From Escherichia coli (GTDB lineage: Bacteria; Pseudomonadota; Gammaproteobacteria; Enterobacterales; Enterobacteriaceae): a stretch of DNA of 64,000 nucleotides. The position numbers were made by a program, and so were the translations under genes. Each line of letters begins with the position of its first letter. Position 1 is the first letter of the stretch. Under the pieces are notes generated by a model that worked only from the letters and a program-made list of their open reading frames with translations, was not told the origin of the DNA and searched no databases. This document shows, piece after piece, positions 13,521 through 54,441 of the stretch. The DNA lies in assembly GCF_050920415.1 (NCBI RefSeq), contig NZ_CP169309.1. One strand, written 5' to 3'.

Positions 13521-14981
<1,461 letters not shown>

Positions 14982-16139: not shown

Positions 16140-16326
<187 letters not shown>

Positions 16327-27262: not shown

Positions 27263-27696
27263 CAGTGTTTCTCCTTTCGCCCGCCAGAGTAAAAAGCAAC
27301 CGTTTACGTTATTGAAACTGTCTAAACATATGCTCGTGGAGTGCCAGTTTTTGCGAGGAAGGGGAGTTAGAGACAGGAATTGCGGAGGCAATCACATAAT
27401 CGTGGTTAAACCACGAAAATGAGAAGAGAACCTGACAATGGAATTATCTGTAATTTTCTCATATTGATATTTCATTAATCATTCTGGCATGTCGCACTCT
27501 CGCATTTAATCGTTTTTATCTGGATAGCGCTCTTTTGGTCGGCAATGTTGAAATAATGAAAGCGGCACAGATTGAGGGGTAATAATTTGAACTTAGTCAC
27601 AAACTTATAATTAAAAAGTCATTCTACCTAATATATGCCCGTTTATTGCATCGCGAACTTTGAGAAGACATAACTCATTAAATGAAAGGGATGCAA

Positions 27697-34441: not shown

Positions 34442-37312
34442 TTATATTTTTTCCAGCGCGGTGAGTATTTTCTCCGGTGTGAAATGCCATTCGCGTAACC
34501 AGATGCCGCAGGCATCGTGAATTGCGGTAGCAATCGCCGGAGCTGCGCCATTTACACCGATTTCTGAGATTGATTTCGCCCCGAATGGGCCGACTTTATC
34601 GTCGCTCGGCACCAGCACAGCGCGGAAATCACGCGGAATGTCACCAATTTTCGGTGCGCCGTAACTGCGTAAATCACGCGTTAACGGGTGGCCTTCGGCG
34701 TCATAAATGATTTCTTCGCTCATACTGTGCCCGATAGCACGCAGGGTGGCACCGTAGATTTGTCCCAACGCTAACTCTGGATTGACCGGTGTACCGCAGT
34801 CCAGCAAGGCATAGAATTTATCCAGGCGGATTTCACCCGTACGTGTGTTGACGGCAACTTCAGCAAAGTTTGCGCCATACGGGAAGGCGAAATCAGGCGT
34901 GATATAACTGGCAGTTCCCACCAGTGAACCAAAACCGGTGCCGGTTTCGCCTTTATGGGCAATATCACCGAAACTAACTTCGCCTTTCTTGCCGCGAACG
35001 ACACCCGGCGTTGCCAGTTGAACATCCTCCAGGGGTTCCCCCAGCATTTGTGCGCCGTGGAACAGGATTTTCTCTCGGAGGTTTTCTGCCGCCATACGCG
35101 CCGCGTTGCCGGAGAAACATGTACCGGACGAGGCATATGCGCCTTTATCAAACAGCGCATGATCGGTATCACCGGAGATAACATGCACGTCCTGCGGTGG
35201 GCAGTGCAGCACTTCTGCTGCCAGTTTCGTCACAACCGTATCCAGACCAGTACCAATATCCGCACCGCCAGAATGAACGATAAAGGTACCGTCTGATTCC
35301 AGTTTGATCATGCAGTTAGCCTGATCGATATCCGGGATCCCTGATTTCTGCATGATAATGGCGACGCCACGACCGATGTGCCAGTCACCGTTTTGTGGTT
35401 TTGGTGAAGACCATTGGATCATCTCGCGACCCTGACGCAGGATCTCTTCCAGTGCGCAGCTGGCGGCGGAAGGAACGGAGGTCGGCGCTTTACCTTCACC
35501 GATTGCACCGAGAATTTTCAGCTCTTGCCCTTCGTGTACCCGGTTACGTTCGATAATTTCCAGTTGGTCGATCTGTAACTGTTCAGCCAGTTCCGCTAAT
35601 GCCATGGTGATAGCGAAGTTACCTTTCGGTGCGCCATAACCCTGATAAGCACCATTTGGGCAAATGTTGCTGTAGTAGGTGGTGACCTGGAAATCGACGT
35701 TATCGCACGGATATAACGGCAGCGACAGCGCCGGTCCGTTACACGGTACGGTGAGTGAGTGGTTGCCGTAAGGGCCTGTGTTGGCGCGGAAATCCATCTT
35801 CACAGCCGTCAGGCGACCATCTTTCTTTGCCCCCAGTTTGACGGTGACTTTCGCGACGTGACGAGAGGTGTTAGCAATAAACTCTTCTTCACGAGTGTAG
35901 CGGAACAGTACCGGACGCCCGGTCACGCAGGTTGCCCAGGCGCACACTTCTTCCAGCAGGATGTCCTGTTTAGACCCAAAACCGCCGCCAACTCGCTCTT
36001 TAATGACATGAACTTTATGTTGTTTCATGCCCACGAGGCGCGCGACCTGGCGGCGTAAGTGCCATGGTACCTGGGTGGAGGCGTGGATAACCAGACGATC
36101 GCCGTCCATACGGGTAAAGCAGATATGAGTTTCAGTCGGGCACTGCTGCGCCTGCGTTGAGTTATAGGTTCGCTCAATGATCACATCGGCATCGGCAAAG
36201 CCTTTGTCCATATCGCCAATATGACCATGAATACTGGCGGCGATATTTTTACGGGGGCGAGAACCGATCGGGAAGTTGATGATCATATGCTCGCCGCGCT
36301 GGGCTGCATGGCTGTTATCGTCTTCCAGAGTATCTGGCGCACCAGCAACATACACCACCGGTTCATCGTGCACGACAGGCGCATCTTCCGCCATTGCCTC
36401 GTCAATCGACATTACAGGTTTAAGCACTTCATATTCAACGTCGATGAGCTTCAGTGCTTCGAGCGCAATTTCTTCACTTTCTGCGACGACCGCAGCAACG
36501 CGATCGCCGACGTGACGCATTTTCTTGCCGAACATACGGCGGTCAAGCGGTGACGGTTCCGGTGCGCTCTGACCACCCGGGGTGTAGTAGATATCCGGGC
36601 AATTCAGATGAGTAATAACGTGAACGACGCCTGGTAAGGCTTCAGCTTTGCTGACATCCAGGTGAGTAATCAGTGCGTGAGCGTGAGGGCTACGTAACAT
36701 TTTAATGACGCAGGCGTCAGCCGTTACGCGGTCTTCAACATAGCAGGGTTTCGCCTGCACCATTTTTGCGGCATCAGTTTTAGGATAATGCTTACCAATG
36801 ACTTCAAGGTCATCGCGGAAAGTCGGAGCGATATCAATGGTGGCCTGCGGGTTATTTTTACGTGCAACCGCCAGTTCAATGACCTGATAGTATTGTTGCC
36901 AGCCTGCATCGCGACTGAACAAACCAGAAAGCGCGTCGTCGATCTCTTCGCGGGTCGGTGCGGCGATACGCTCGAGCAGATCAGTGATAATCAGAGCAGC
37001 AGCTGGATCGTTATAACCAGACTGCACCACGCCAACATCAACCATTGCCTGTTGAACCAGACTTAACTCGTTCCATTTTCCCAGAGACTCTGCGGTACGA
37101 ATATTAGCCTTCTCTATCTGTGCGGCAATAAGTAAGGACGCGTTGACGATATTACCGTTAAAGATAATTGCGTCAGAACCGGCAAAACCGAATCCATCAT
37201 CGCTGTTGCGTACAGAGTGCATTCCCATGTTAAACAACAGCTTTTGCACGTTTTCACCAGGATTAACGGTTAGCTCCTGGGGCGTGCCATTTAATGTAAA
37301 GTGGATGATCAT
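34442..37312 (-). CDS. xdhD: molybdopterin-binding oxidoreductase subunit with N-terminal 2Fe-2S domain (xanthine dehydrogenase-like)
   Basis: 956 aa ORF recognised as XdhD (YgfN). Confidence 0.92.
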   Translation of the reverse strand: MIIHFTLNGTPQELTVNPGENVQKLLFNMGMHSVRNSDDGFGFAGSDAIIFNGNIVNASLLIAAQIEKANIRTAESLGKWNELSLVQQAMVDVGVVQSGYNDPAAALIITDLLERIAAPTREEIDDALSGLFSRDAGWQQYYQVIELAVARKNNPQATIDIAPTFRDDLEVIGKHYPKTDAAKMVQAKPCYVEDRVTADACVIKMLRSPHAHALITHLDVSKAEALPGVVHVITHLNCPDIYYTPGGQSAPEPSPLDRRMFGKKMRHVGDRVAAVVAESEEIALEALKLIDVEYEVLKPVMSIDEAMAEDAPVVHDEPVVYVAGAPDTLEDDNSHAAQRGEHMIINFPIGSRPRKNIAASIHGHIGDMDKGFADADVIIERTYNSTQAQQCPTETHICFTRMDGDRLVIHASTQVPWHLRRQVARLVGMKQHKVHVIKERVGGGFGSKQDILLEEVCAWATCVTGRPVLFRYTREEEFIANTSRHVAKVTVKLGAKKDGRLTAVKMDFRANTGPYGNHSLTVPCNGPALSLPLYPCDNVDFQVTTYYSNICPNGAYQGYGAPKGNFAITMALAELAEQLQIDQLEIIERNRVHEGQELKILGAIGEGKAPTSVPSAASCALEEILRQGREMIQWSSPKPQNGDWHIGRGVAIIMQKSGIPDIDQANCMIKLESDGTFIVHSGGADIGTGLDTVVTKLAAEVLHCPPQDVHVISGDTDHALFDKGAYASSGTCFSGNAARMAAENLREKILFHGAQMLGEPLEDVQLATPGVVRGKKGEVSFGDIAHKGETGTGFGSLVGTASYITPDFAFPYGANFAEVAVNTRTGEIRLDKFYALLDCGTPVNPELALGQIYGATLRAIGHSMSEEIIYDAEGHPLTRDLRSYGAPKIGDIPRDFRAVLVPSDDKVGPFGAKSISEIGVNGAAPAIATAIHDACGIWLREWHFTPEKILTALEKI

Positions 37313-38088
37313 ACGGCTTCCTCCCCAGCCTGTTGGCAGTCGGCATAAAGGTCGGCTACCAGAACTCCCGTGATATAGCGTTTATAGGCCACGCTGCCCC
37401 GCAAATCTTCCTGCGGGAAAATGGCGTTGGCGACAGCCTGTTCAAGGGCATCGCCTTCCAGGTTTTGTTTTTCAACATCGTGCAGACGCAGTGCTTTACT
37501 GGCCACGCCATCCAACGCAATTCGCATACCGTCGTGATCGGTTAACGCAACGGCTGCCGTTACTACCGTTAACCCAGCCTGAGAACGGCTAATTTTGCGA
37601 GTCGTACAGGTGCGATACGGATCTTTAATGATGATTTCGGTTAGCAGGCGATCGCATGGGCAGGCCAGGTACTCCTCAATTGACAGAGTTTCACCGTTGC
37701 CAAAAACCAGTTCGGCATCCAGTGCCAGCAGGACGGGAAGCAGCACCGACTCTTCCTGCCGGGCGGCGATTTCACCACCAATGGTCGACTGATTACGAAT
37801 ATGGCGAGAGTAGACAAAGCCGAGGGCCTCACGCAGTGCTGCAGGAATAAACCGTGCATCACGCAGTGTTTGCAAGCGAGACATTGCGCCAATCCGCAAT
37901 GCACCGTTATCCCAGTCAACCCAGTCCAGTTCCAGATCCTGTAAGGATATGGCAATCTTTTTATCGGTACGGGTTGGTGTGGCGTTGAGTTTACTGCCTC
38001 CGGCGAACCAGACGGCTTCATCCTGGTAGCGGCGCTTCAGTTCCAGCGCCTGTTCGACAGAGTCGGGCCTGAAAAATTGTTCAATCAT
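37309..38088 (-). CDS. ygfM: FAD-binding subunit of molybdenum hydroxylase (CO dehydrogenase flavoprotein-like)
   Basis: 259 aa; overlaps xdhD start by 4 nt. Confidence 0.9.
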   Translation of the reverse strand: MIEQFFRPDSVEQALELKRRYQDEAVWFAGGSKLNATPTRTDKKIAISLQDLELDWVDWDNGALRIGAMSRLQTLRDARFIPAALREALGFVYSRHIRNQSTIGGEIAARQEESVLLPVLLALDAELVFGNGETLSIEEYLACPCDRLLTEIIIKDPYRTCTTRKISRSQAGLTVVTAAVALTDHDGMRIALDGVASKALRLHDVEKQNLEGDALEQAVANAIFPQEDLRGSVAYKRYITGVLVADLYADCQQAGEEAV

Positions 38089-38138
38089 CTTCTTTCCTTA
38101 TTTAACCCTCTTCCCTGCGGGAAGAGGGTATTTGTCAT

Positions 38139-39467
38139 TTATGCCAGCGCATCCATCCGACGCCACATACTGGCAGCGGCTTTTTGGGCTTGCGCATAAA
38201 TGGAATCGCAATCGAAGTTAAACTGACGGTCTTCATAGACCATCATGCCATTGACCATCACGCTATGAACGCTGCCTGAGCCCATACCGAAAGCGATATG
38301 CCCGGCGATATTGTCTGCCAGCAGCGGCGTCGGCGAGTTGTAATCGCAAATGGTTAAATCGGCTTTGTAACCGGCTTCCAGAAGGCCAAATTTCGCGCCA
38401 AAATTGCGGCTCATCAGTTCGTTGCCGTTAGCCAGTGCTTTGGCAAAACTGTCAGGCCACAGCGGACCACCCGCATCGCGATGTTTAAAGAAGGCAAATT
38501 TCATCTCTTCAAACATATCTGAACCAATACCGTCCGTACCCAACGCCAGATTGCGGATGTCGCAAAGATGATGGTTGTAGCCGACATGGTTGTTCATGTT
38601 TGAACGGGCGTTATGCACCAGGAATGCATCACGCTGATTGAGCAACGCGATGTCGTCTTTAGACAGATAAAGCCCATGAGCGACCAGCGTTTTGCTGTCG
38701 ATGAGATCGAATTGCGCTAATCGTGCCAGCAGATCTTTGCCGTACCAGTGATGACTATGGGAAACATCGTAAAGGTCTTCCGCAGCGTGAATATGTAAAC
38801 CACGGCCTGTGGCTTTCACGGCCTCACGCAGCATTTCCAGACCGGCATCCGGCACAGTAAACGGCGCGTGAGCACCAATATGAGCTTCTACCAGATACGG
38901 TTCAGTTGCCGCTTTCTTCGCATCATCAATCTGACGGGCGAAGCGGATATTTTCCTCTACTCCTTCCTGTAGTTCTTTAATGCCGTTGTTACGGTCAGTG
39001 GTTTCAAAACAGGTCATCGCACGCAGGCCAACTTTTAAAAATGCGTTGCGCAATGTGGAGAGCGACCCGCTGATATACGCCGGAGAGGCATGGTGATCGA
39101 TAACAGATGTACAGCCGCTCTTAATCGCTTCCAGTGAACAAATCAGTCCGCTGTAATAGAGCGACTCTTCATCAAGGGCGCGATCGAGCCGCCACCAGAG
39201 ATTTTTCAGCGTTGAAATGAAATCCGGGCAGGGGGCGATGTTTGCCATAATTCCGCGGGACAGCCCCGAGTAAAAATGGTTGTGCGAGCAGACAATTCCC
39301 GGCATCACAATCCGACCATGCATCTCTTTGTAGTTGGCATCGGGGTAGCGTTGCGTCAGAGCATCGCCTATAGCGACAATCACATCATTTTCGATGGCGA
39401 TATCAACGCCTTCCTGCACTTTCGCCGGGTGTAACTGCACTGCAGTGACATTCTTCAGAATCAACAT
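38139..39467 (-). CDS. ssnA: amidohydrolase-family putative aminohydrolase SsnA
   Basis: 442 aa; metal-binding HxH near N-terminus (CSHNHFYSG). Confidence 0.9.
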   Translation of the reverse strand: MLILKNVTAVQLHPAKVQEGVDIAIENDVIVAIGDALTQRYPDANYKEMHGRIVMPGIVCSHNHFYSGLSRGIMANIAPCPDFISTLKNLWWRLDRALDEESLYYSGLICSLEAIKSGCTSVIDHHASPAYISGSLSTLRNAFLKVGLRAMTCFETTDRNNGIKELQEGVEENIRFARQIDDAKKAATEPYLVEAHIGAHAPFTVPDAGLEMLREAVKATGRGLHIHAAEDLYDVSHSHHWYGKDLLARLAQFDLIDSKTLVAHGLYLSKDDIALLNQRDAFLVHNARSNMNNHVGYNHHLCDIRNLALGTDGIGSDMFEEMKFAFFKHRDAGGPLWPDSFAKALANGNELMSRNFGAKFGLLEAGYKADLTICDYNSPTPLLADNIAGHIAFGMGSGSVHSVMVNGMMVYEDRQFNFDCDSIYAQAQKAAASMWRRMDALA

Positions 39468-39469
39468 GA

Positions 39470-42400
39470 TTACACCTCCACGCGGCCCAGCAGATAATGA
39501 TGATGCTGGTGGACATGGCTAATGATGCGGCACATATCGTTCAGCTCCGGTGGTACGTTGTTGAACTGACCTTCGCTGTCGATGTTTAACACCCAGCTTT
39601 GGTTATTCAGACGTACTCGTACCCGGCAATCTTCCACAAGGAAGCCTGGGTTGCTGCTGTTATCAAAGTCTTGCGACAGGCTGAAGACGGTGATTTTGTC
39701 TTTGTACGGTTTACCGTTCCACGGACAGAACTGAGCGCAGTTGCCGCATTCGTTACAGTAAGCGTCGAGGTGCAGCGTCTGGAAACGGTTCTGGAAGCCA
39801 GGGACCGCAATGGATACGTTGGCGCGGTTCGGGCAGACATCCACACACTTGCTGCAAACGTAGTTACATTCAAGGCAGCGTGCGGCTTCCTGGGCGACAA
39901 ACGCGTCACGATCGTCGCTATCCACCAGGGTGATAGAGATATCGCCTTTGCGTTGATAGATTTCCGCCGGATTAACGTTGTTCCAGTATTTATCGTTCTG
40001 GTGGGAACGGATATTTTCCCGACTAAGGATGGCATCGGTCGCCCGACGCGCGGTTCCGACAGCAGCGACAATGGAGGATGGTCCGCGCTGTACGTCGCCG
40101 ATCATAAAGACGTCAGTCAGACGAGTTTCGCCATTATGGTCGACGTCTGGCCAGCCGTTTTTGTCCAGCGGCACGCCCATCGCATTCAGGGCTTCAGTAT
40201 CCTGCTGTTCACCAATGGCGGTGATCAGGCTGTCTACATGCAGTGTAACTGTTTCGTTGGTTTCAACCGGACGGCGACGACCTTTCTCATCAGGTTCGCC
40301 AAGCGACATAACGCGCAAGGTTAAGGTGCCATCAGCATCGAAACGTTCCGGATTATTCAGGAAACGGAACTCCACGCCGTCGTGCAACGCTTCTTCATAC
40401 TCTTCGCGCCATGCTGGCATCTCTTGCAGTGAACGACGGTAAACGACTGTTGCTTTTTCTACGCCTGGAACGCGTAACGCCGCACGAGCGCAGTCCATTG
40501 CGGTGTTACCCGCCCCGACAACGACCACATGTTTGCCCAGCTTGAGCGCTGTGCCCTTGTTGTATTCACGCAGGAAGGGGAGTGATTTCCAGACATTTTG
40601 GTTGTCGCCCGCCAGTTTCACACCGCTATTTTTATCAGTGCCGGTGGCAATCAGAACATAGTGGAAGCCCTGATTTTTTAACTGTTCAACGGTCAGATCG
40701 GGTGAGCAGCCATACTCAAATTTCACGCCGTGAGCGGCAACAAAATCGATATCGTGCTGAATTAACTCTGCAGGAATACGGAACTGAGGAATGATATTTT
40801 TCACCACGCCGCCCGCATTGGCTTCGCGTTCAAACAGCGTAACCGGATGGCCCGCTCTGGCAAGGAAGTAACCTGCTGCCAGACCCGCCGGACCTGCACC
40901 AATCACGGCAACCGGATGGCGTGAACCAGAACCGGCTGGTTTGTGCCAGCGTTGCTTATATTCATCCCAACCTTTTTCCAGCGCGACTTTTTTCAGTTCG
41001 CGGATATTCAGCGCACTGTCGTAATCCAGGCGGGTACAGTTGTATTGGCACTGGTGATCGCAAATATGACCGGTAATGGCGGGCAGGGCGTTGCGTTGGT
41101 AGATGAGTTCCAGTGCGTCGGCATAGCGGTGTTCGCCAAGCAGACGGATGTATTCCGGAATATCTTGCTTGATAGCGCAGGCAGTAACACAGGGGGCAAC
41201 GTAGCAGTCGGTCAGCGGCAGGTCTTCTGCCACTTCAATACGCTCTTCTGGCTTCCAGTGTTTCTGGGTGTATTCCATGGTTAACGCGTCTGCTGCCAGT
41301 CTGTTCAGTCGTTCGACGTCAACGTGGTTAAGCTTCCAGGCGTCGGAGCCTTCCAGCTCGCGCATGCAGGCACTTAAGCGCAGATAGCCGCCAGGTTTCA
41401 GCAGGTCGGTTGCCATAGTAATAGGGCGAATACCAGTATCAAAAATATCGCGGATAGTCAGCTGACTGGCGCCACCGGAATAAGAAATGGGCAGTTTGCC
41501 GTCAAAGGCGCGAGAGAGAACTGCTGCAACATTGATGGAGAGCGGAAACAGCGCACGGCCTGACATATACATCTCTTCACCGGGCAGTGCACCTTTGTTA
41601 TTAATGGTGCCGAGGGTATTGGTCAGTTTGACGCCAAAGCCGAGTGATTTTTCTTTTGCCAGTGCCATCAGGCGTTCCAGCATTTCCAGTGCTTGCGTCA
41701 GCTTGAGGTCGTGATCAAATGACTCTTCTTTTAAGCCTATGTAACCGAAACCGCAGACATCGAGGATCTCACGAACACGCGCGTACCCCAGTAAGGTCGG
41801 GTTGAGTTTCACAAAGGTATTGAGCCCTTTTTCTTCCAGCATGTAGCGGCAAATGGCTTCGATTTCATGCGGAGGACAGCCGTGCATCGTGGAGAGGGTG
41901 ACGCCTTGTACCATGCTGGTGGGGATGCGTGCCGGTAAGGCCTGCAAGCATTCGCGTTTTTCCTGTAAGCCGTGGCGGGCTAAAAATGCGTCATCCTGGA
42001 GTAATTTATTCAGCGTATCGCGATATTGAGCGAATTTCGGATGGTCAGATGCGTCCATCATATTGTCGATGAACTGTTGCATCGGCGGTTGCTTAATACC
42101 TTCGAGGTTGTAACCGACGCTCATATTAAAGATGAACGATTTACCGGAATCAGAAGGCTGGAACATCGCTTCGAGAAGGTGCAGGGCAAACCAGGCTTTG
42201 AGGTATTCATCCCAGGCTTTAAGCAGGGTAAATTCGGTGGACCATTCGGTGTTAAAGCACTCGTCTTCGGCATCAATACAGGGCTTTTCCAGCTCCAGGC
42301 GGTCAAGAATTTGGACGGTTTTTAGTTCGATGAAGCGTCCGCCAGTCAGCCAGGATGTGACAATATTTTGCGCGAGCTGCGTGTGCGGACCAGCGGCAGG

Positions 42401-42568
42401 GCCGACGGGAGTGGCACAGGTTTCACCGAAGACGCTAACGGTTTTACCTTTTACGGGTGAGTAAAACTGTTGCTCGGGAATACCAAAGATTGAGCGTTGT
42501 TGTTGGTATTCATCAAATATGCGCGTCAAAAGTTCCTCAAACGGAATGGGACGCATAATATCCCCCAT
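39470..42568 (-). CDS. ygfK: large Fe-S / FAD-NAD(P)-binding oxidoreductase (GltD-like), putative selenate/Se-dependent hydroxylase subunit
   Basis: 1032 aa; dinucleotide fold [14 protein letters not shown] and Cys clusters near C-terminus. Confidence 0.9.
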   Translation of the reverse strand: MGDIMRPIPFEELLTRIFDEYQQQRSIFGIPEQQFYSPVKGKTVSVFGETCATPVGPAAGPHTQLAQNIVTSWLTGGRFIELKTVQILDRLELEKPCIDAEDECFNTEWSTEFTLLKAWDEYLKAWFALHLLEAMFQPSDSGKSFIFNMSVGYNLEGIKQPPMQQFIDNMMDASDHPKFAQYRDTLNKLLQDDAFLARHGLQEKRECLQALPARIPTSMVQGVTLSTMHGCPPHEIEAICRYMLEEKGLNTFVKLNPTLLGYARVREILDVCGFGYIGLKEESFDHDLKLTQALEMLERLMALAKEKSLGFGVKLTNTLGTINNKGALPGEEMYMSGRALFPLSINVAAVLSRAFDGKLPISYSGGASQLTIRDIFDTGIRPITMATDLLKPGGYLRLSACMRELEGSDAWKLNHVDVERLNRLAADALTMEYTQKHWKPEERIEVAEDLPLTDCYVAPCVTACAIKQDIPEYIRLLGEHRYADALELIYQRNALPAITGHICDHQCQYNCTRLDYDSALNIRELKKVALEKGWDEYKQRWHKPAGSGSRHPVAVIGAGPAGLAAGYFLARAGHPVTLFEREANAGGVVKNIIPQFRIPAELIQHDIDFVAAHGVKFEYGCSPDLTVEQLKNQGFHYVLIATGTDKNSGVKLAGDNQNVWKSLPFLREYNKGTALKLGKHVVVVGAGNTAMDCARAALRVPGVEKATVVYRRSLQEMPAWREEYEEALHDGVEFRFLNNPERFDADGTLTLRVMSLGEPDEKGRRRPVETNETVTLHVDSLITAIGEQQDTEALNAMGVPLDKNGWPDVDHNGETRLTDVFMIGDVQRGPSSIVAAVGTARRATDAILSRENIRSHQNDKYWNNVNPAEIYQRKGDISITLVDSDDRDAFVAQEAARCLECNYVCSKCVDVCPNRANVSIAVPGFQNRFQTLHLDAYCNECGNCAQFCPWNGKPYKDKITVFSLSQDFDNSSNPGFLVEDCRVRVRLNNQSWVLNIDSEGQFNNVPPELNDMCRIISHVHQHHHYLLGRVEV

Positions 42569-42640
42569 AACCCTCTCCTTAGCTTATACAGATATCATTG
42601 AGTGACCGGTGTTGAGAAATCCGGTGGTTTAGGGGGATAG

Positions 42641-42666
42641 AGCAACAATCGCACCACTCTTGCCAG
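42641..42666 (-). promoter_or_regulatory. candidate sigma-54 (-24/-12) promoter for ygfK operon
   Basis: Minus strand reads CTGGCAAGAGTGGTGCGATTGTTGCT: two overlapping TGGnnn-N5-TTGC-like spacings (TGGCAAGAGTGGTGCG and TGGTGCGATTGTTGCT), 70-95 nt upstream of ygfK ATG; ygeV sigma-54 activator encoded nearby. Confidence 0.35.
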
Positions 42667-42889
42667 GTTTGGCGGGAAATATAAAAAAATGTGAGGCGGC
42701 TCGAAACTTAAGGGCTTTTTGTGAATGAACTCACAGGTGCCAAATGAGAATTAAAATCACTCCTGGAAATTATTATTACCAGCCCATTTATCACTTTTTC
42801 TCTTTTCTCAAAATCAGTGATTCCTTATCATAATGATAAAGCAGGCTGGATGGTTTAAATATTTGAACGCAAACGTTTAACTACGTTTT

Positions 42890-46014: not shown

Positions 46015-46054
46015 ATGAAAATGGCCGGATGGTATTACCCACCCGGCCTTTAAA

Positions 46055-46987
46055 TTACTGACAAATCACCGTTCCGGTTTTGCCTTCAATCCCTTCTTTC
46101 GCTTTGCTCAATACGGTAATCAGTGCTTCGCGTCCAGCGCGAGAGCGAGCAAACGAGGCGGCTGCTTCCACTTTAGGCAGCATAGAACCTTTCGCAAAAT
46201 GACCTTCTTCGATAAAGCGTTCAGCATCACTTAATGACAGGCGATCGAGCCACTGTTCGTTCTCTTTACCGAAGTTAATGGCCACTTTTTCTACCGCAGT
46301 CAGAATGATCAGCATATCGGCATCAATCATTTCTGCTAAACGGGCGCTGGCCCAGTCTTTATCAATAACCGCGCTGGCACCACGCAGATGGTTACCTTCA
46401 CGAATAACAGGAATACCACCACCGCCAACGGTGATCACTACCTGGCCTGCATCTACCAGAGCTTTAACCGTTTCTTTTTCAATGATATCAACCGGTTTTG
46501 GCGAGGCAACAACACGGCGATAGCCGCGACCAGCATCTTCTTTCAGAGTGTAACCCTGTTTTGTCAGTTGCTCGGCTTCCTGCTCGGTAAAGAACGAACC
46601 GATTGGTTTGGTCGGGTTGAGGAAGGCCGGATCGTTAGCATCTACTTCGACCTGGGTAACCAGCGTTGCTACAGGTTTATTAATGCCACGAGAAAGCAGT
46701 TCTTCTCTTAAGGCGTTTTGTAGATCGTAACCAATATAACCCTGGCTTAAGGCAACACAGACAGACATCGGCAGCATTGGCGAGTGCGCTTCAGTTTTTG
46801 CCGCGGCTTCAAAGGCCTGGTTAATCATGCCCACCTGCGGCCCGTTACCATGAGTGACGATGACCTCATGTCCCTGGGCAATTAAATCAACAATTGCCTG
46901 AGACGTAATTTTTACCGCTTTCATTTGTCCGGCTAGATCGTCGCCCAGCGCATTCCCGCCCAGGGCGAGAACAATTTTCTTACTCAT
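46055..46987 (-). CDS. yqeA: carbamate kinase-like protein
   Basis: 310 aa; amino-acid kinase fold N-terminus KIVLALGGNAL. Confidence 0.9.
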   Translation of the reverse strand: MSKKIVLALGGNALGDDLAGQMKAVKITSQAIVDLIAQGHEVIVTHGNGPQVGMINQAFEAAAKTEAHSPMLPMSVCVALSQGYIGYDLQNALREELLSRGINKPVATLVTQVEVDANDPAFLNPTKPIGSFFTEQEAEQLTKQGYTLKEDAGRGYRRVVASPKPVDIIEKETVKALVDAGQVVITVGGGGIPVIREGNHLRGASAVIDKDWASARLAEMIDADMLIILTAVEKVAINFGKENEQWLDRLSLSDAERFIEEGHFAKGSMLPKVEAAASFARSRAGREALITVLSKAKEGIEGKTGTVICQ

Positions 46988-47034
46988 TTTTCCTCACTCA
47001 TCATTCTTGATTGTGTATAGATCCCTGGCAGTGG

Positions 47035-48420
47035 TTAGAGCACGGGAGGGACAAACGGTTTGCGTCGCAGGAAACGACCTCGCCCGGCTTTACCTGTAAA
47101 GGTGCCGTCACAGAAAATCGTTTCACCACGGGATAATGTTCTGACAATTGCGCCCTGACAGGTAAAACCCTCCCAGGGCGAGTAGTCGGCGTTGTCGTGG
47201 AGATGGCGGTGTTGAATTTGTTGACTCTGACGTGGGTCGATAATTACCACATCACCATCTGAGCCGGGCGCTAATAATCCTTTTTGTGGCCACAGGCCAA
47301 ATAGCCTGGCGGGCATCGCACTGGTCAATTCAACAAAACGCTCCGGTGTGATACGTCCCGTCATCACGCCACTGGAGAACAGCAACTGCATGCGGTTTTC
47401 CACACCGGGCAAGCCATTTGGGCAGCGGCTGAAATCGCCTTTAGAAATTTGCTGGCGCTGGGCCATCGAGAAGGTGCAGTGATCGGTCGCCACCACGTCA
47501 ATCGCACCATCACTAATGCCACACCACAGTTTGTCCTGCTCACGCACGTTACGCAGTGGTGGGCTAAGAATGAACTTCATGCCGTCTTCTGTATCGTAAC
47601 TGCGTTCGTCCAGCAGGAGATATTGCGGGCAGGTTTCAACCCAGACTGACTGGTGATTCGCGCGGGCAAGACGCAGATAATCCAGACCTAAGCCGTTAGA
47701 GAGGTGGACGATATAGAGCGGGGCGTTACCGGCAATTTGTGCCAGGTTAATCATGCGGGCGATGGCTTCCGCTTCGCATTCCAGAGGGCGGCTCAAGGCG
47801 TGATAGCGCGGCGCGGTTAACCCTGCGGCGATAAACTCCGCCCGCTTGCTGGCGATAGCTGCATCATTTTCCGGGTGCACGGTGGTCAGCGCGCCGGACT
47901 CATGCAAGCGGCGTAACGCCTGCAAAACCTCGTCATCGTTGAGTTTGTATTGATAGGTTAAATAGAGTTTAAAACTGCTCAGTCCTTCTTCGACCATCAT
48001 CGGAATTTCGTCGAGGATGGCGTGATTAATGTGCTGGATCACACCGTGAAAGCTGTAGTCGATGACCGCCTTATGGGCGGCATAGCCACGATAAACTTCC
48101 AGTTGATGGCGTAACCGGCAGCCATTCGGGCCAAATCCCATATGGTCAATAATGGTTGTTGTACCGCCACACGCAGCTGCGCGGGTACCGGTAAAAAAAT
48201 CATCACAACTGCGCGCGATGCCGACATCAATATTGAAATGCGTATGGACATCCACGCCGCCAGGGAAAACGTAACAGCCAGTGGCATCAATTTCTTCATA
48301 CGGGAGCTGCGGCGAAATATTGCTGCCCAATTGGCGAACAATCCCGCTCTCAATCAGCAAATCTTGTTTGGCTTGTCCATCTGCGTTAACGACAGTGCCG
48401 TTTTTGATCAATACGCGCAT
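47035..48420 (-). CDS. hyuA: D-phenylhydantoinase / dihydropyrimidinase-like amidohydrolase
   Basis: Track ORF 47035..48432 trimmed to MRVLIKNGTVVNADG... (461 aa); metal motif DVHTH. Confidence 0.9.
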   Translation of the reverse strand: MRVLIKNGTVVNADGQAKQDLLIESGIVRQLGSNISPQLPYEEIDATGCYVFPGGVDVHTHFNIDVGIARSCDDFFTGTRAAACGGTTTIIDHMGFGPNGCRLRHQLEVYRGYAAHKAVIDYSFHGVIQHINHAILDEIPMMVEEGLSSFKLYLTYQYKLNDDEVLQALRRLHESGALTTVHPENDAAIASKRAEFIAAGLTAPRYHALSRPLECEAEAIARMINLAQIAGNAPLYIVHLSNGLGLDYLRLARANHQSVWVETCPQYLLLDERSYDTEDGMKFILSPPLRNVREQDKLWCGISDGAIDVVATDHCTFSMAQRQQISKGDFSRCPNGLPGVENRMQLLFSSGVMTGRITPERFVELTSAMPARLFGLWPQKGLLAPGSDGDVVIIDPRQSQQIQHRHLHDNADYSPWEGFTCQGAIVRTLSRGETIFCDGTFTGKAGRGRFLRRKPFVPPVL

Positions 48421-48472
48421 AGCAAACTCCAAAAACCCTCCGGCGAACCGGAGGGGAATAAGTGAAGAGTAA

Positions 48473-49684
48473 TTATTCGGTTGCCAGCCAGCTTAACGGG
48501 ATTGCAGCGTACATCGCGGCACAGGTCACCAGGTGAGATTTCCAGGTTTTTTCGTTAGGTGCATGCGCTTCAGGTTCTTTACCCGGGCCAAAGCCGATCA
48601 CCGGAATGCCGTGACGACCCATGATAGATACGCCGTTAGTTGAGAAGGTCCACTTATCAACAACCGGCGCTTTGCCAAACAGCCCTTCGTAGGCGTTCAC
48701 CAGGGCTTTAACAGTGAAGTGATCTTCTTCCACTTTCCAGGTCGGGAAGTAGCATTCGGTTGGGTAAACCAGGCCAGTCCAGGAAGGACGGTCGTAGTTG
48801 TACATAGAAACAACCGCGTTAGCTTTCTGTACCGCAGGCAGGGCGCGGATTTCGTCCAGCGCGCCTTCCCAGGTTTCGCCCCAGGTCAGACGACGGTCAA
48901 TTGAAACTGCGCAGCTGTCTGCTACAGCGCAACGGCTTGGAGATGTGAAGAAGATTTCAGAAACGGTGAGGGTGCCTTTGCCGAGGAATTCGTCATAGCC
49001 CAGGCGCTGGGAGAGTTCCTGCAATTCGCCAAGAATCGGACCCATTTTGAAAATGGCGTTATCACCGCGTTCTGGCGCAGAGCCGTGGCAGCTAACGCCC
49101 TGAACATCAATGCGAATTTCCATACGACCGCGTTGACCACGATATACCTGGCAGTCGGTTGGTTCGGTACTGACCACAAATTCCGGGCGAATGCCAGATT
49201 GTTCAATAATGTACTGCCAGCACAGACCGTCGCAGTCTTCTTCCTGCACAGTGCCGGTGACCAGCAGGGTGTATTCATCTTCCAGACCGAGGTCTTTAAT
49301 GATTTTACCGGCATAAACCATAGAGGCCATGCCGCCTTCCTGGTCGGAAGTACCGCGGCCACCGATCAGTTCATCAGTTTCCATGCCTTCGTACGGATCG
49401 AAGTCCCAGTTTTTGATGTTGCCAATGCCGACGGTATCAATATGAGCGTCCATTGCCACCAGACGCGGGCCGTGGCCGATATAACCGAGAACGTTGCCCA
49501 TCGGGTCGATTTCAACTTTATCGAAGCCGACTTTTTCCATCTCTTCTTTAATACGATGTACTACGCGTTTTTCATCGCAGCTTTCACTGGGAATAGCAAC
49601 CATATCGCGCAGAAAGCGAGTCATGTCTGCCTGGTAATCTTTTGCTTTTTCAAGAATCAGTTTGAATGGAATATTCTTAGCCAT
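48473..49684 (-). CDS. ygeY: M20-family peptidase / deacylase YgeY
   Basis: 403 aa ORF recognised as YgeY. Confidence 0.9.
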
Positions 49685-49741
49685 TATTTTTCTCCAGATT
49701 TTTTACTCCCCGTTTTGCGGGGAGCAGTTCCAATAGGGTGA

Positions 49742-50938
49742 TTAAGGTGCTACAGAGTGTTTGCCTTCCCAGACAACTTCGCGGTAGTGCTTCACGTCGG
49801 TGTCGCCTTCAGTGCTGATAACCAGCACCACTGCATCTTTGTTCAGCGCCAGTTTTTCCATCAGGCTTTGACGTTGCGGGTGATAATGAACCGCCGCGAG
49901 AACGCCTAAACCGACAGCGCCGGATTCACCGGAGATGATGCGCGGGTCGTTGCCGTACGGATTACCCAGCACGCGCATACCTAATGCGGCAACGCTGTCC
50001 TGGCAGGAGATGAATTGGGTGGCGCAGTTACGTAGGATTTCCCAGCCCAGTGGGTTAGGTTCGCCGCAAGCCAGGCCCGCCATGATAGTGGCCATATCGC
50101 CGCCAACGTTGACGATGTCGCCTTTGACACCAGAACGATAGATACAGTCAGCTTTGTCAGGTTCAACAATAATGCTGTGCAGATTTTGCGGGCTGTAGAC
50201 GTCGACCAGATAACCCAGTACGCCGCCGGCCATCGCGCCGACACCGGCTTGCAGCAGAACGTGAGTTGGGGTTACGCCCATTTCACGCATTTGCTCGACG
50301 GCTTCATCTGCCAGAGTGGCATAGCCCTGCATAATCCAGGTTGGGATTTTGGTGTAGCCTTCCCAGGCGGTATCTTGCACCACTTCCCAGCCGTGTTGCT
50401 GCGCGTGTTGCATGGTCAGGCGAACGGTATCGTCATAGTTCATATCAGTGACGATGCACTCGGCTCCGAGGTTCAGAATGGCGTCAACGCGTTCCTGAGC
50501 GGAACCTTTCGGCATGTAAATTACCGCGTTCTGACCGAGTTGCTGTGCTGCCCAGGCAACACCGCGCCCGTGGTTGCCGTCGGTCGTTGTAGCAAATGTC
50601 ATTTTTTCGCCGATGGCATTTTTCAGATGCTCGAATGACAGTGTTTCGATATCAAGATGATATTTTTCGCACAACAACTGAGCGATGGCATATGCGCCGC
50701 CGAGCATTTTGAATGCGTTCAGACCGAATCGTTTTGATTCGTCCTTAACGAGAATTTTTTTCACCCCAAAAAGGTTTGCGAGATCGTCCAGCGCGCAAAG
50801 TGGTGTTGGGCGATAGCCAGCAATTTTCTGGTGGAACTGGCGCGCCAGTTTTGCCTGGCTTTGCGAAAAGAGCGGTGATGTTTCGCCGTTGAAAAATTTG
50901 TTATCGGCGATATCAATCTTCAATGAGAAAACGGACAT
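49742..50938 (-). CDS. dpaL: 2,3-diaminopropionate ammonia-lyase (PLP-dependent)
   Basis: 398 aa ORF recognised as YgeX/DpaL. Confidence 0.92.
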   Translation of the reverse strand: MSVFSLKIDIADNKFFNGETSPLFSQSQAKLARQFHQKIAGYRPTPLCALDDLANLFGVKKILVKDESKRFGLNAFKMLGGAYAIAQLLCEKYHLDIETLSFEHLKNAIGEKMTFATTTDGNHGRGVAWAAQQLGQNAVIYMPKGSAQERVDAILNLGAECIVTDMNYDDTVRLTMQHAQQHGWEVVQDTAWEGYTKIPTWIMQGYATLADEAVEQMREMGVTPTHVLLQAGVGAMAGGVLGYLVDVYSPQNLHSIIVEPDKADCIYRSGVKGDIVNVGGDMATIMAGLACGEPNPLGWEILRNCATQFISCQDSVAALGMRVLGNPYGNDPRIISGESGAVGLGVLAAVHYHPQRQSLMEKLALNKDAVVLVISTEGDTDVKHYREVVWEGKHSVAP

Positions 50939-50996
50939 ATCCTATCCTTTTGGCCTCTGGAAATAGAGAGCCGACCTGTCGATCGGCCCGAGGGGG

Positions 50997-52187
50997 TTAT
51001 TTCACGCGTTCTTGCGCTTCTTTCAGCAGTTGTTCGAGCAGTGCGCCTGGTTTGGAATATTTACGGGAAAGGATCATTGCTGCGATGATGTATGGCTTCC
51101 AGCTGGCTTCTTTGTAGGTCGCGATACGGTATTTTTCGAATACGCCTTCAGTGACTTCACCTTCTTTGCAGGATACGCCACTGATATCTGCTGGCAGGCA
51201 GTGCATGTACAGGGCTTCGCCATCACGGGTCAGTTCCATCATCTCTTCAGTGCAATGCCAGTCTTTGTGTTGCGCGTTCTGTGCCAGACACTGTTTTTCC
51301 AGTGCTTTTAAGCCTTCGTGATCGTTCGCACGCAGCAGTTCAGTACGCTCTTCCATCACTTTGTAAGGTGCCCATGACTTCGGATAAACGATGTCTGCGT
51401 CTTTGAAGGCTTCTTCCATGCTGGTGACCTGACGGAAGCTACCGCCAGAGGCTTTAGCATTATTTTTAGCTACTTCAACTACATCTGGGATCAAATCGTA
51501 GCCTTCCGGATGGGCCAGGGTGACATCCATACCGAAGCGGGTCATCAGGCCGATAATGCCTTGCGGTACAGAGAGCGGTTTGCCGTAGCTTGGGGAGTAT
51601 GCCCAGGTCATGGCGATTTTTTTACCTTTCAGGTTTTCGAGCGAACCAAAGTGTTCACGCAACCATGCCAGGTCAGCCATTGACTGAGTCGGATGGTCGA
51701 TATCGCATTGCAGGTTCACTAAAGCCGGACGCTGTGGAAGCACGCCCTGCTTGTAGCCGTCATCAAGCGCAGCGCCAACTTCACGCATATAGGCGTTACC
51801 TGCGCCCAGATACATATCGTCACGAATACCAATAGCGTCGGCGCAGAAGGAGATCATATTGGCGGTTTCACGTACGGTTTCGCCGTGAGCGATTTGTGAT
51901 TTGCCTTCGTCGAGATCTTGCTGTGCAAGGCCGAGCAGGTTAAGCGCGGAAGCATAAGAGAAGCGGGTACGGGTGGAGTTGTCGCGGAATACGGAAATAC
52001 CTAATCCACTATTAAAGACTTTGGTTGAGATGTTTTCAGCACGCAGTGCTTTTAATGCTGCGGCAACGTCCAGTACTTGTTTCAGTTCATCAGGCGTCTG
52101 TTCCCACGTTAACAAAAAATCTTTCTCGTGAAGGTGAGAGGTCAGCGAATTGATATCCTTAATCAGCTCATTAACAGTTTTCATCAT
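50997..52187 (-). CDS. ygeW: putative carbamoyltransferase (ATCase/OTCase-like) YgeW
   Basis: 396 aa; carbamoyl-phosphate binding STRTR motif. Confidence 0.9.
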   Translation of the reverse strand: MMKTVNELIKDINSLTSHLHEKDFLLTWEQTPDELKQVLDVAAALKALRAENISTKVFNSGLGISVFRDNSTRTRFSYASALNLLGLAQQDLDEGKSQIAHGETVRETANMISFCADAIGIRDDMYLGAGNAYMREVGAALDDGYKQGVLPQRPALVNLQCDIDHPTQSMADLAWLREHFGSLENLKGKKIAMTWAYSPSYGKPLSVPQGIIGLMTRFGMDVTLAHPEGYDLIPDVVEVAKNNAKASGGSFRQVTSMEEAFKDADIVYPKSWAPYKVMEERTELLRANDHEGLKALEKQCLAQNAQHKDWHCTEEMMELTRDGEALYMHCLPADISGVSCKEGEVTEGVFEKYRIATYKEASWKPYIIAAMILSRKYSKPGALLEQLLKEAQERVK

Positions 52188-52662
52188 AAAGTCCCGGTAG
52201 TGGAATGACAGGCAAAGTGGTTTATTTCACTGTGACTTGCCAAAGTGATTGGTGTTTTCACAGCTATACCAGGGACTAACAATAAGTGTGCCAGAATTAT
52301 CCACGCGGCTATAAAAGACTAATTTGACGGGTAATGTGTGGTGTAGATCACAAATTGATGCCAGCTTCCGGTTGTGTGTAAAATACGAAAACGTTTGGCT
52401 TTTTTTATTGCGTTGTTTATTTGCTGCTAAGTATCAGAAATAAGATAAAGGGGCAGGCTATCCCTCGTCAGTTTGATAAACTCACCGCTGTAATTCTCAT
52501 ATTGATATAGAAATGTGATATCTCTTCCATAATTTCATTAGAAAGTGATAAAAACCTTATGTTTTTATCAAAGCCAATTTCGCCTGAGTTAATATCATGA
52601 TGATCTGTGAACCATCAACGTCTTCAATGATCGACTTTTAAGTAAGTCTGGAAGGTAAAGCT

Positions 52663-54441
52663 ATGGAGCTTGCTACTACGCAGTCAGTATTGATGCAAAT
52701 TCAACCGACAATTCAGCGTTTTGCCAGAATGCTTGCCAGCGTTTTGCAGCTTGAGGTTGAGATCGTTGATGAAAACTTGTGTCGCGTCGCCGGAACGGGT
52801 GCGTATGGGAAGTTTCTTGGCCGCCAGTTGAGCGGCAACTCACGCCTGCTCCGCCACGTCCTGGAAACGAAAACTGAAAAAGTTGTGACACAGTCTCGCT
52901 TCGATCCCCTTTGCGAAGGTTGCGATAATAAAGATAATTGTCGCGAAAAAGCATTTCTGGGTACGCCTGTCATTTTACAGGATCGTTGTGTTGGGGTGAT
53001 AAGTTTGATTGCAGTTACCCACGAGCAACAAGAACATATCAGTGATAATTTACGCGAGTTTTCTGATTACGTTCGCCATATATCCACCATTTTTGTTTCG
53101 AAACTTTTGGAGGATCAGGGGCCAGGAGATAACATCAGTAAAATATTCGCGACCATGATCGATAATATGGATCAGGGCGTTTTAGTTGTTGATGACGAAA
53201 ATCGGGTTCAGTTTGTTAATCAGACTGCCTTAAAAACACTCGGTGTTGTGCAAAATAATATTATTGGGAAACCTATCCGTTTCAGACCATTAACATTTGA
53301 GAGTAATTTTACCCATGGACATATGCAGCATATTGTTTCGTGGGACGATAAAAGTGAATTAATCATTGGTCAATTGCATAACATTCAGGGCAGACAATTA
53401 TTTTTAATGGCGTTTCACCAATCGCATACCAGTTTTTCTGTAGCAAATGCACCTGATGAACCGCATATTGAACAATTGGTTGGCGAGTGCCGTGTTATGC
53501 GGCAATTAAAACGACTCATTAGCCGTATTGCGCCCAGCCCATCCAGCGTTATGGTGGTTGGTGAAAGCGGCACGGGTAAAGAAGTCGTCGCGCGTGCAAT
53601 CCATAAGTTGAGTGGAAGACGAAATAAACCCTTTATTGCTATCAACTGTGCCGCGATTCCTGAACAACTTCTGGAGAGCGAACTATTCGGTTATGTTAAA
53701 GGCGCATTTACTGGCGCTTCAGCCAACGGTAAAACAGGGTTGATTCAGGCGGCGAATACGGGCACGCTGTTTCTCGATGAAATTGGTGATATGCCATTAA
53801 TGTTGCAGGCTAAATTACTGCGCGCTATTGAGGCGCGTGAAATACTGCCGATTGGTGCCAGTAGCCCAATTCAGGTCGACATCCGCATCATTTCTGCAAC
53901 TAACCAGAATTTGGCCCAGTTCATTGCCGAAGGTAAATTCCGCGAAGATCTCTTCTACCGACTTAATGTTATCCCGATCACTCTTCCACCGCTGCGTGAA
54001 CGTCAGGAAGATATTGAACTGCTGGTACATTACTTTTTACATCTGCATACCCGTCGTCTGGGATCGGTTTATCCGGGTATTGCTCCCGATGTCGTCGAGA
54101 TATTGCGTAAGCATCGTTGGCCCGGAAACCTGCGCGAGTTAAGCAATTTAATGGAATATCTGGTTAACGTTGTTCCTTCAGGTGAAGTTATCGACAGCAC
54201 GCTATTGCCGCCAAATTTGCTGAATAATGGCACAACGGAGCAAAGTGATGTAACAGAGGTCAGCGAGGCGCACTTGGCACTCGATGATGCGGGCGGCACG
54301 GCGCTGGAGGAGATGGAAAAGCAAATGATCCGCGAGGCGCTTTCACGTCATAACAGCAAGAAGCAAGTTGCTGATGAACTGGGTATCGGCATTGCTACGC
54401 TCTATCGCAAGATAAAGAAATATGAGTTGTTAAACGCATAA
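52663..54441 (+). CDS. ygeV: sigma-54-dependent transcriptional activator (bacterial enhancer-binding protein)
   Basis: 592 aa; AAA+ core with Walker A GESGTGKE and GAFTGA sigma-54 contact motif; C-terminal HTH. Confidence 0.93.
   Translation: MELATTQSVLMQIQPTIQRFARMLASVLQLEVEIVDENLCRVAGTGAYGKFLGRQLSGNSRLLRHVLETKTEKVVTQSRFDPLCEGCDNKDNCREKAFLGTPVILQDRCVGVISLIAVTHEQQEHISDNLREFSDYVRHISTIFVSKLLEDQGPGDNISKIFATMIDNMDQGVLVVDDENRVQFVNQTALKTLGVVQNNIIGKPIRFRPLTFESNFTHGHMQHIVSWDDKSELIIGQLHNIQGRQLFLMAFHQSHTSFSVANAPDEPHIEQLVGECRVMRQLKRLISRIAPSPSSVMVVGESGTGKEVVARAIHKLSGRRNKPFIAINCAAIPEQLLESELFGYVKGAFTGASANGKTGLIQAANTGTLFLDEIGDMPLMLQAKLLRAIEAREILPIGASSPIQVDIRIISATNQNLAQFIAEGKFREDLFYRLNVIPITLPPLRERQEDIELLVHYFLHLHTRRLGSVYPGIAPDVVEILRKHRWPGNLRELSNLMEYLVNVVPSGEVIDSTLLPPNLLNNGTTEQSDVTEVSEAHLALDDAGGTALEEMEKQMIREALSRHNSKKQVADELGIGIATLYRKIKKYELLNA

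Follow-up and report, generated by a model that had tools for sequence, protein, structure and literature searches.

The reductive route of anaerobic urate degradation, also called the '2,8-dioxopurine' or isoxanthine pathway, was described between 2022 and 2025. Its gene cluster comes from work by Liu et al. and Kasahara et al. in 2022-23, and all pathway steps have since been shown experimentally with enzymes of Escherichia coli K-12 (Li et al., 10.1101/2025.05.19.654654; Liu et al., 10.1101/2025.04.24.650524). The cluster lets gut bacteria ferment urate secreted by the host, affects host urate levels and the risk of gout, and is being engineered into probiotics (Liu et al., 10.1101/2025.04.24.650524; Li et al., 10.1101/2025.05.19.654654). 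The locus considered here belongs to a window of 64,000 nucleotides from E. coli (NCBI RefSeq assembly GCF_050920415.1, contig NZ_CP169309.1), the window being the whole stretch of DNA that was analysed. It consists of five genes, ygeW, dpaL (ygeX), ygeY, hyuA and yqeA (arcC), which according to the list of open reading frames (ORFs) are all on the minus strand and span positions 46055-52187. The best overall explanation, and a very probable one, is that these genes form the lower half of the reductive urate pathway, in which C-N bonds are cleaved and energy is conserved, and that they are expressed along the lines of the model proposed below. The pathway role is already known from the published work, beyond which our finding adds no new biology. 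What is new is modest: a regulatory footprint common to several genera and a set of intercistronic hairpins, both of them predictions rather than findings.

The lower half of the reductive urate pathway

Stepwise reconstitution has been achieved with HyuA, YgeW or UacY, YgeY and YgeX, using enzymes from E. coli and Clostridioides difficile (Li et al., 10.1101/2025.05.19.654654). Isotope tracing in mutants of Clostridium sporogenes and E. coli, combined with purified K-12 enzymes, yielded labelled intermediates, and in vitro ATP is formed from 2,3-diureidopropionate only when YgeW and YqeA are both present (Liu et al., 10.1101/2025.04.24.650524). A mutant deleted for ygeW-dpaL-ygeY-hyuA-arcC no longer grows anaerobically on urate or adenine but still grows on allantoin, and an allB mutant still uses urate (Kasahara et al., 10.1101/2022.12.12.520169). 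In single mutants, the conversion of urate to acetate is blocked.

In the strain studied here, XdhD-YgfM would reduce urate to 2,8-dioxopurine, which YgfK and SsnA would dearomatise before opening the pyrimidine ring to give ureidomethyl-hydantoin. HyuA would be the first enzyme of the five-gene segment, hydrolysing the hydantoin ring of this compound to form 2,3-diureidopropionate. YgeW would then remove one of the two ureido groups by phosphorolysis, the products being carbamoyl phosphate and a mono-ureido aminopropionate, and YqeA would pass the phosphate of carbamoyl phosphate to ADP, a substrate-level phosphorylation worth one ATP per urate. YgeY would hydrolyse the second ureido group to leave 2,3-diaminopropionate. 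As the last step, DpaL would form pyruvate and two NH3 from 2,3-diaminopropionate, feeding central metabolism and acetate formation. Judging from the 0-4 residues that separate them from the assayed K-12 proteins, the encoded enzymes should catalyse the published reactions. The upper-half genes ygfK-ssnA-ygfM-xdhD lie in the same window at about 34442-42568. Thus the combination by which a reductive (2,8-dioxopurine) urate cluster is recognised is found here, with hyuA, ygeW, ygeY, dpaL and a carbamate kinase linked to ssnA, ygfK and xdhD.

The first-pass annotation had proposed, from the enzyme set, the ring-opening of a hydantoin or ureido compound and the recovery of ATP from carbamoyl phosphate, and this matches the published in-vitro reconstitution and genetics (Li et al.; Liu et al.; Kasahara et al.). 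It was silent on the minus strand, on the substrate (ureidomethyl-hydantoin, made from uric acid via 2,8-dioxopurine), on the upper-half genes nearby and on the order of the enzymes. That order (HyuA, YgeW/YqeA, YgeY, DpaL) differs from the order of the genes.

Gene layout and identity of the five enzymes

The cluster runs exactly from the stop codon of yqeA to the start codon of ygeW. From ygeW to yqeA the intergenic gaps measure 58, 57, 52 and 47 nt, and each of the five genes is preceded by its own Shine-Dalgarno sequence. Family assignments come from comparing protein bit scores with the curated NCBIfam cut-offs, given second in each pair below.

50997-52187, minus strand: ygeW, 396 aa, knotted carbamoyltransferase (NF005538, 825 bits against 453; TIGR03316, 675 against 500)
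49742-50938, minus strand: dpaL (ygeX), 398 aa, pyridoxal phosphate (PLP)-dependent 2,3-diaminopropionate ammonia-lyase (TIGR03528, 651 bits against 532)
48473-49684, minus strand: ygeY, 403 aa, M20 (ArgE/DapE-type) hydrolase (TIGR03526, 722 bits against 321)
47035-48420, minus strand: hyuA (ygeZ), 461 aa, D-hydantoinase-type cyclic amidohydrolase (TIGR02033, 677 bits against 393)
46055-46987, minus strand: yqeA (arcC), 310 aa, carbamate kinase (TIGR00746, 386 bits against 358)
52663-54441, plus strand: ygeV (uacR, isrR), sigma-54 enhancer-binding activator, divergent from ygeW across a 475-bp spacer

With exact coordinates, all five proteins above their cut-offs and a fitting domain content of YgeV, the earlier description of a five-gene cluster divergent from a sigma-54 activator is borne out. 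A 10-kb query around the cluster places the window in the E. coli chromosome: among 5426 complete genomes of this species, 5276 match, strain MFDS1022581 with 100% identity. The RefSeq annotation of the identical strain lists ygeW, dpaL, ygeY, hyuA and arcC, with ygeV divergent. The cluster is confirmed as genuine and is not a chance pattern. Relative to K-12 MG1655 there is one residue difference in YgeW, one in DpaL, none in YgeY, four in HyuA and none in YqeA; the four in HyuA all fall outside its HxH metal motif (HTH at residues 59-61).

YgeW carries the carbamoyl-phosphate motifs STRTR (71-75), HPTQ (165-168) and HCLP (329-332), and PDB entry 3q98 is near-identical to it. It scores below the equivalog cut-offs for ornithine transcarbamylase (OTCase; TIGR00658, 133 bits against 281) and aspartate transcarbamylase (ATCase; TIGR00670, 71 against 237). 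It is therefore a distinct subfamily of the carbamoyltransferase superfamily, neither OTCase nor ATCase. DpaL, to which PDB entries 4d9g-n are near-identical, has its PLP lysine at K77, within GLNAFKMLG. The hyuA ORF extends over 47035-48432, with the annotated ATG start at 48420; D-hydantoinase structures match its product at E~1e-110, and the carbamate kinase structure 1b7b matches YqeA at E 5e-90. The PDB search returned no solved structure related to YgeY at E<1e-20, despite the medical interest of this pathway enzyme. The family name of YgeY, 'selenium metabolism-linked', reflects co-occurrence with genes for selenium-dependent molybdenum hydroxylases (yqeB and yqeC being adjacent) rather than any proven requirement for selenium.

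In YgeV, Pfam recognises a PAS region (162-205), a sigma-54 AAA+ domain, a Fis-type helix-turn-helix (HTH_8) and, weakly, a GAF-like match, and finds no receiver domain. The IsrR paper terms the protein an 'orphan response regulator'; since it has a PAS region and lacks a receiver domain, it looks like a ligand-sensing enhancer-binding protein.

The candidate ygeW promoter region

Regulation of the pathway 'remains poorly understood' (Li et al., 10.1101/2025.05.19.654654). Our comparisons draw on 80 loci with YgeW at 68-96% identity, obtained by a YgeW scan with one genome per species and then searched by tblastn with the E. coli proteins. Aligned across 16 genera, the ygeV-ygeW spacer holds four conserved blocks. 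One is the leader segment directly before the ygeW start codon, and the other three contain the following elements.

52278-52293, minus strand: candidate sigma-54 -24/-12 promoter, TGGCACacttaTTGTT, one mismatch to the consensus
52337-52352, unstranded: CRP-like box, TGTGGTGTAGATCACA, with its centre some 77 bp upstream of where transcription is estimated to start
52495-52507, unstranded: candidate YgeV/UacR enhancer palindrome, TATCAATATGAGA, consensus TATCA-N3-TGATA, with a second copy at 52593-52605

The -24 element of the candidate promoter, TGGCAC, is perfect, and its -12 element, TTGT, has GT instead of GC, the conserved block reading yTGGCAy-N5-TTGTT. In 22 loci from other genera the sigma-54 element lies about 92-123 nt 5' of the ygeW start codon, and the GT is conserved there too. 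Transcription would start at about 52267, leaving a leader of 80 nt. A genomic SELEX (gSELEX) peak of sigma-54 RNA polymerase falls within the ygeV/ygeW spacer (PMC8743547). Scanning the whole window for the sigma-54 consensus gave 42 matches at up to two mismatches against 43 expected, which is uninformative by itself; particular sites are credible only by their position and their conservation across genera. The CRP-like box corresponds to the conserved block TTTGTGAy-N6-yCRCA in the 16 genera, and a native CRP site in this spacer is mentioned, along with glucose repression, by Li et al. (10.1101/2025.05.19.654654). The palindrome at 52495-52507 sits in a strongly conserved block of further TATCA/TGATA half-sites.

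These elements can be assembled into a model. YgeV/UacR, bound some 230 bp upstream at TATCA-N3-TGATA sites, would activate the sigma-54 promoter that lies about 80 nt ahead of ygeW, and the CRP box lying between the palindrome and the promoter would account for the repression by glucose.

Intercistronic hairpins

From the ygeW promoter, one transcript would run through all five genes. Along this transcript, hairpins are predicted in three of the four gaps and after the last gene.

50968-50989, minus strand: ygeW/dpaL hairpin, GGGCCGAUC-GACA-GGUCGGCUC, no U-tract
49704-49726, minus strand: dpaL/ygeY hairpin, CUCCCCG...CGGGGAG followed by an A-run, z -3.35 in E. coli
48424-48455, minus strand: terminator-like ygeY/hyuA hairpin, CCCUCCGG-UUCG-CCGGAGGG then UUUUUGGAGUUU (U5 tract), overlapping the hyuA ribosome-binding site
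46023-46048, minus strand: terminator hairpin after yqeA, GGCCGGGUGG...CCAUCCGGCC then AUUUUCAUUU, -22.6 kcal/mol, z -4.4, common to the convergent yqeB

The ygeY/hyuA hairpin has an 8-bp GC-rich stem and a UUCG loop (centroid -16.6 kcal/mol, z -2.8) and is identical in K-12. At this position a hairpin is found in all 27 gaps tested and reaches z<-2 in 81% of loci, with a U-rich tail in only 11%. The ygeW/dpaL position likewise holds a hairpin more stable than shuffled sequences (z<-2) in 79% of loci. Conservation is weak for the dpaL/ygeY hairpin (z<-2 in 12% of loci), and the hyuA/yqeA gap has no such hairpin in any locus (0%). At the ygeW/dpaL and ygeY/hyuA positions the sequence of the hairpin varies between genera and its position is kept. 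Sigma-70 and terminator scans of the region stay at chance level overall. Between 45900 and 52700 Rfam gives no element even at E<=1, hence no known riboswitch or small RNA in the leader or the gaps.

The hairpins would act as RNA-stability elements or as partial terminators, which in E. coli would lower hyuA and yqeA relative to ygeWXY; those whose position is conserved may thus tune the two groups of genes against each other. One promoter combined with intercistronic hairpins is, we infer, the most economical reading.

The end of the cluster differs between strains. In K-12 MG1655 an insert of about 180 bp, similar to repetitive extragenic palindromic (REP) elements, lies between yqeA and yqeB (positions 14395-14614 of locus L082); the terminator hairpin is duplicated there, with a copy flanking the insert. 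The present strain lacks the insert and has a single hairpin in a 40-bp yqeA/yqeB gap (46015-46054).

A possible promoter design shared across the purine cluster

The palindrome TATCA-N3-TGATA, allowing at most one mismatch, occurs seven times in the window against 1.5 expected, and five of the seven copies lie in the ygeV/ygeW, ygfK, xdhA and uacT/ygfT spacers. In the related loci, 56 of 114 matches fall within the 3.3% of sequence located upstream of ygeW, ygfK or xdhA. Upstream of ygeW, the palindrome is present in 33 of the 35 loci that carry ygeV, and absent in all the loci of other phyla that lack ygeV. Three further spacers of the window are arranged as follows.

42569-42889, ygfK spacer: palindrome TATCATAATGATA at 42826-42838, perfect; CRP box TGTGAATGAACTCACA at 42720-42735, perfect; sigma-54 element TGGTGCGATTGTTGCT at 42641-42656
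58144-58558, xdhA spacer: palindrome-like site at 58334-58346; sigma-54 element TGGCGTAAATCTTGC at 58200-58214
27263-27696, uacT spacer: the identical 13-mer TATCAATATGAGA at 27457-27469; sigma-54-like site at 27331-27346

A palindrome and a sigma-54-like site are therefore found together at ygeW, ygfK, xdhA and uacT, with a clear CRP box at ygeW and ygfK. The promoter elements of ygfK and xdhA are conserved in other genera, the xdhA sigma-54 element as TGGCGTAAnTyTTGC. Genes with palindrome promoters coincide with the published YgeV iModulon. This enrichment at iModulon genes, together with the co-occurrence with ygeV, makes TATCA-N3-TGATA a good candidate for the sequence to which YgeV/UacR binds. 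A limited literature search found no published UacR motif. A perfect TATCAAGATGATA inside dpaL (50650-50662) was considered as an internal UacR site and rejected as a by-product of coding: it encodes K-Y-H-L-D-I, and its synonymous positions are not conserved across genera.

The balance is even on whether these features amount to an apparently undescribed promoter design of the YgeV/UacR regulon. In such a design the palindrome would precede a sigma-54 promoter by about 120-235 bp (with the conserved -12 GT at ygeW), a CRP box between the two could serve as a DNA-bending co-activator replacing IHF, and the hairpins could in addition adjust ygeWXY relative to hyuA-yqeA. The promoter map and the hairpin before hyuA-yqeA are relevant to de-repressing or rebalancing the pathway in engineered strains.

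Conservation across genera

The colinear five-gene order is found in 29 of the 80 YgeW loci. All 29 are from Gammaproteobacteria (Enterobacterales and Aeromonas), and most have a divergent ygeV. The five-gene order is also kept in Photobacterium, where the kinase has diverged more. In Bacteroidota, Riflebacteria and Spirochaetota, YgeY usually adjoins YgeW, and homologues of SsnA or Xdh are often nearby. This distribution agrees with the published one.

Compared with that of E. coli, YgeW is 68-75% identical in Bacteroidota, Riflebacteria, Lentisphaerae and metagenome-assembled genomes (MAGs) of Spirochaetales, in which YgeY is about 50% and HyuA and SsnA about 30-40% identical. Such high conservation of YgeW points to very strong constraint or to a recent horizontal spread of ygeW. 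Three betaproteobacterial loci (L026, L027 and L036) have YgeW-YgeY-HyuA-YqeA and no adjacent DpaL, and a Comamonadaceae MAG (L075) carries two copies of YgeW, 85% and 83% identical to that of E. coli.

Weighing the pathway and its expression

Several points weigh against the proposed reading of the pathway and its expression. On the biochemical side, the product peak of YgeW in vitro is small (Li et al., 10.1101/2025.05.19.654654). The two 2025 studies also disagree on the regiochemistry of this enzyme, as a commentary acknowledges: its product is given either as 3-amino-2-ureidopropionate, the 3-ureido group being removed (Liu et al., 10.1101/2025.04.24.650524), or as 2-amino-3-ureidopropionate (albizziin), the 2-ureido group being removed (Li et al., 10.1101/2025.05.19.654654). 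On the side of expression, the -12 GT at ygeW departs from the sigma-54 consensus, and the UacR site, the part played by CRP and the start of transcription are predictions from sequence. No transcript mapping of the cluster was found in the literature searched, and the transcription unit is variously named 'ygeW' (PMC8743547) or 'ygeWXY', both in papers following RegulonDB, or as all five genes (10.1101/2022.12.12.520169; PMC12623156). The YgeV iModulon list includes ygeW, ygeX, ygeY and hyuA and does not include yqeA. Finally, the ygeY/hyuA hairpin looks like a textbook intrinsic terminator.

The disagreement over YgeW extends one step further, since it also changes which group YgeY hydrolyses. 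M20 enzymes of the ArgE/DapE type usually cleave N-alpha-acyl groups, which by analogy would favour 3-amino-2-ureidopropionate as the product of YgeW. The D-aminoacylase-like UacY, which replaces YgeW in C. difficile, would by analogy favour albizziin. The two family analogies conflict, and we prefer neither assignment; the regiochemistry of YgeW is a small and clearly delimited question.

The description of the locus as a single five-gene operon holds for the common strand, the short gaps and the conserved gene order, and is weakened by the terminator-like hairpin and by the place of yqeA outside the iModulon list. Two transcription units would take these observations, and the names 'ygeWXY' or 'ygeW' used in the literature, at face value: ygeW-dpaL-ygeY would end at the hairpin with its U5 tract at 48424-48455, and hyuA-yqeA would be transcribed from a promoter of its own in the 3' end of ygeY, the pathway being unchanged. 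However, the promoter scans found neither a sigma-70-like nor a sigma-54-like match ahead of hyuA on the minus strand, the ygeY/hyuA gap is only 52 nt, and hyuA shares its iModulon with ygeWXY. In most genera no U-tract follows the hairpin at this position, and 29 loci retain the order of the five genes. We consider two units rather unlikely, and retain the single transcript with hairpins as the proposed model.

As to function, a general use of hydantoins for D-amino acids, with no link to purines, would make HyuA a 'D-phenylhydantoinase' acting on aryl or alkyl hydantoins and YgeY an N-carbamoyl-amino-acid hydrolase. RefSeq does label hyuA a D-phenylhydantoinase, HyuA is closest to the industrial D-hydantoinases, and carbamoylases are known to occur among M20 hydrolases. 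But YgeW, YqeA and DpaL would be left unexplained, as would the transporters for urate and xanthine and the Xdh-type enzymes encoded nearby, the growth phenotype on urate and adenine, the labelled intermediates and the reconstitution. This role is highly improbable, and as the physiological one it is effectively refuted. Scarcely credible is the speculative proposal of Danchin and colleagues (PMC12623156), made since the substrates were undefined, that oxidised guanine products (8-oxoguanine derivatives) are degraded with release of guanidine: it predates or ignores the 2025 reconstitutions, in which each substrate is defined and no step releases guanidine, and none of the five enzymes has guanidine-forming chemistry.

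Other features of the window

Elsewhere in the window, matches above the Rfam gathering threshold are a Sib antitoxin RNA (1863-2013), 6S RNA (ssrS, 2662-2845), naRNA4 (16150-16227) and a tRNA-Gly (59393-59463). To the right of the purine cluster (about 59700-64000 and beyond; positions 34700-39001 of locus L001), the annotated twin strain has a GH15 glycoside hydrolase, a toxin of the GhoT/OrtT family and an IS3 transposase. The same flank contains the start of a degraded type III secretion cluster of the ETT2 type, several genes of which are frameshifted or partial.

Comparison with known systems

The reductive urate pathway of E. coli K-12 is the same system as the one described here. Genes, order and species are the same, the proteins are 0-4 residues apart, and there is no functional difference; only the REP-like insert of about 180 bp after yqeA is missing.

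The arginine deiminase pathway (ArcB and ArcC) resembles it in that phosphorolysis of a ureido group, by a transcarbamylase working in reverse, is followed by the formation of ATP by a carbamate kinase, YqeA being an ArcC equivalog. The same analogy is drawn by Liu et al. (10.1101/2025.04.24.650524). The two differ in the carbamoyl donor, which is citrulline in the arginine pathway and 2,3-diureidopropionate here, and YgeW belongs to a separate knotted subfamily. The anaerobic allantoin pathway of E. coli (AllFGH and AllK) is also a purine breakdown that ends in a carbamoyl-phosphate/ATP step. It proceeds, however, through allantoin and oxalurate, is encoded at another locus and uses a carbamoyltransferase unrelated to YgeW.

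In the industrial hydantoinase/carbamoylase process and in the reductive pyrimidine (Pyd) pathway, as in the present one, a ring is opened by a cyclic amidohydrolase and the N-carbamoyl group is removed afterwards. HyuA is a member of the dihydropyrimidinase/D-hydantoinase family, and the parallel between PydA/PydB and YgfK/SsnA is stressed by Li et al. (10.1101/2025.05.19.654654). What sets the urate pathway apart is that two ureido groups are removed, one of them by phosphorolysis with a gain of ATP, and that the product is diaminopropionate, which is deaminated by a dedicated lyase.

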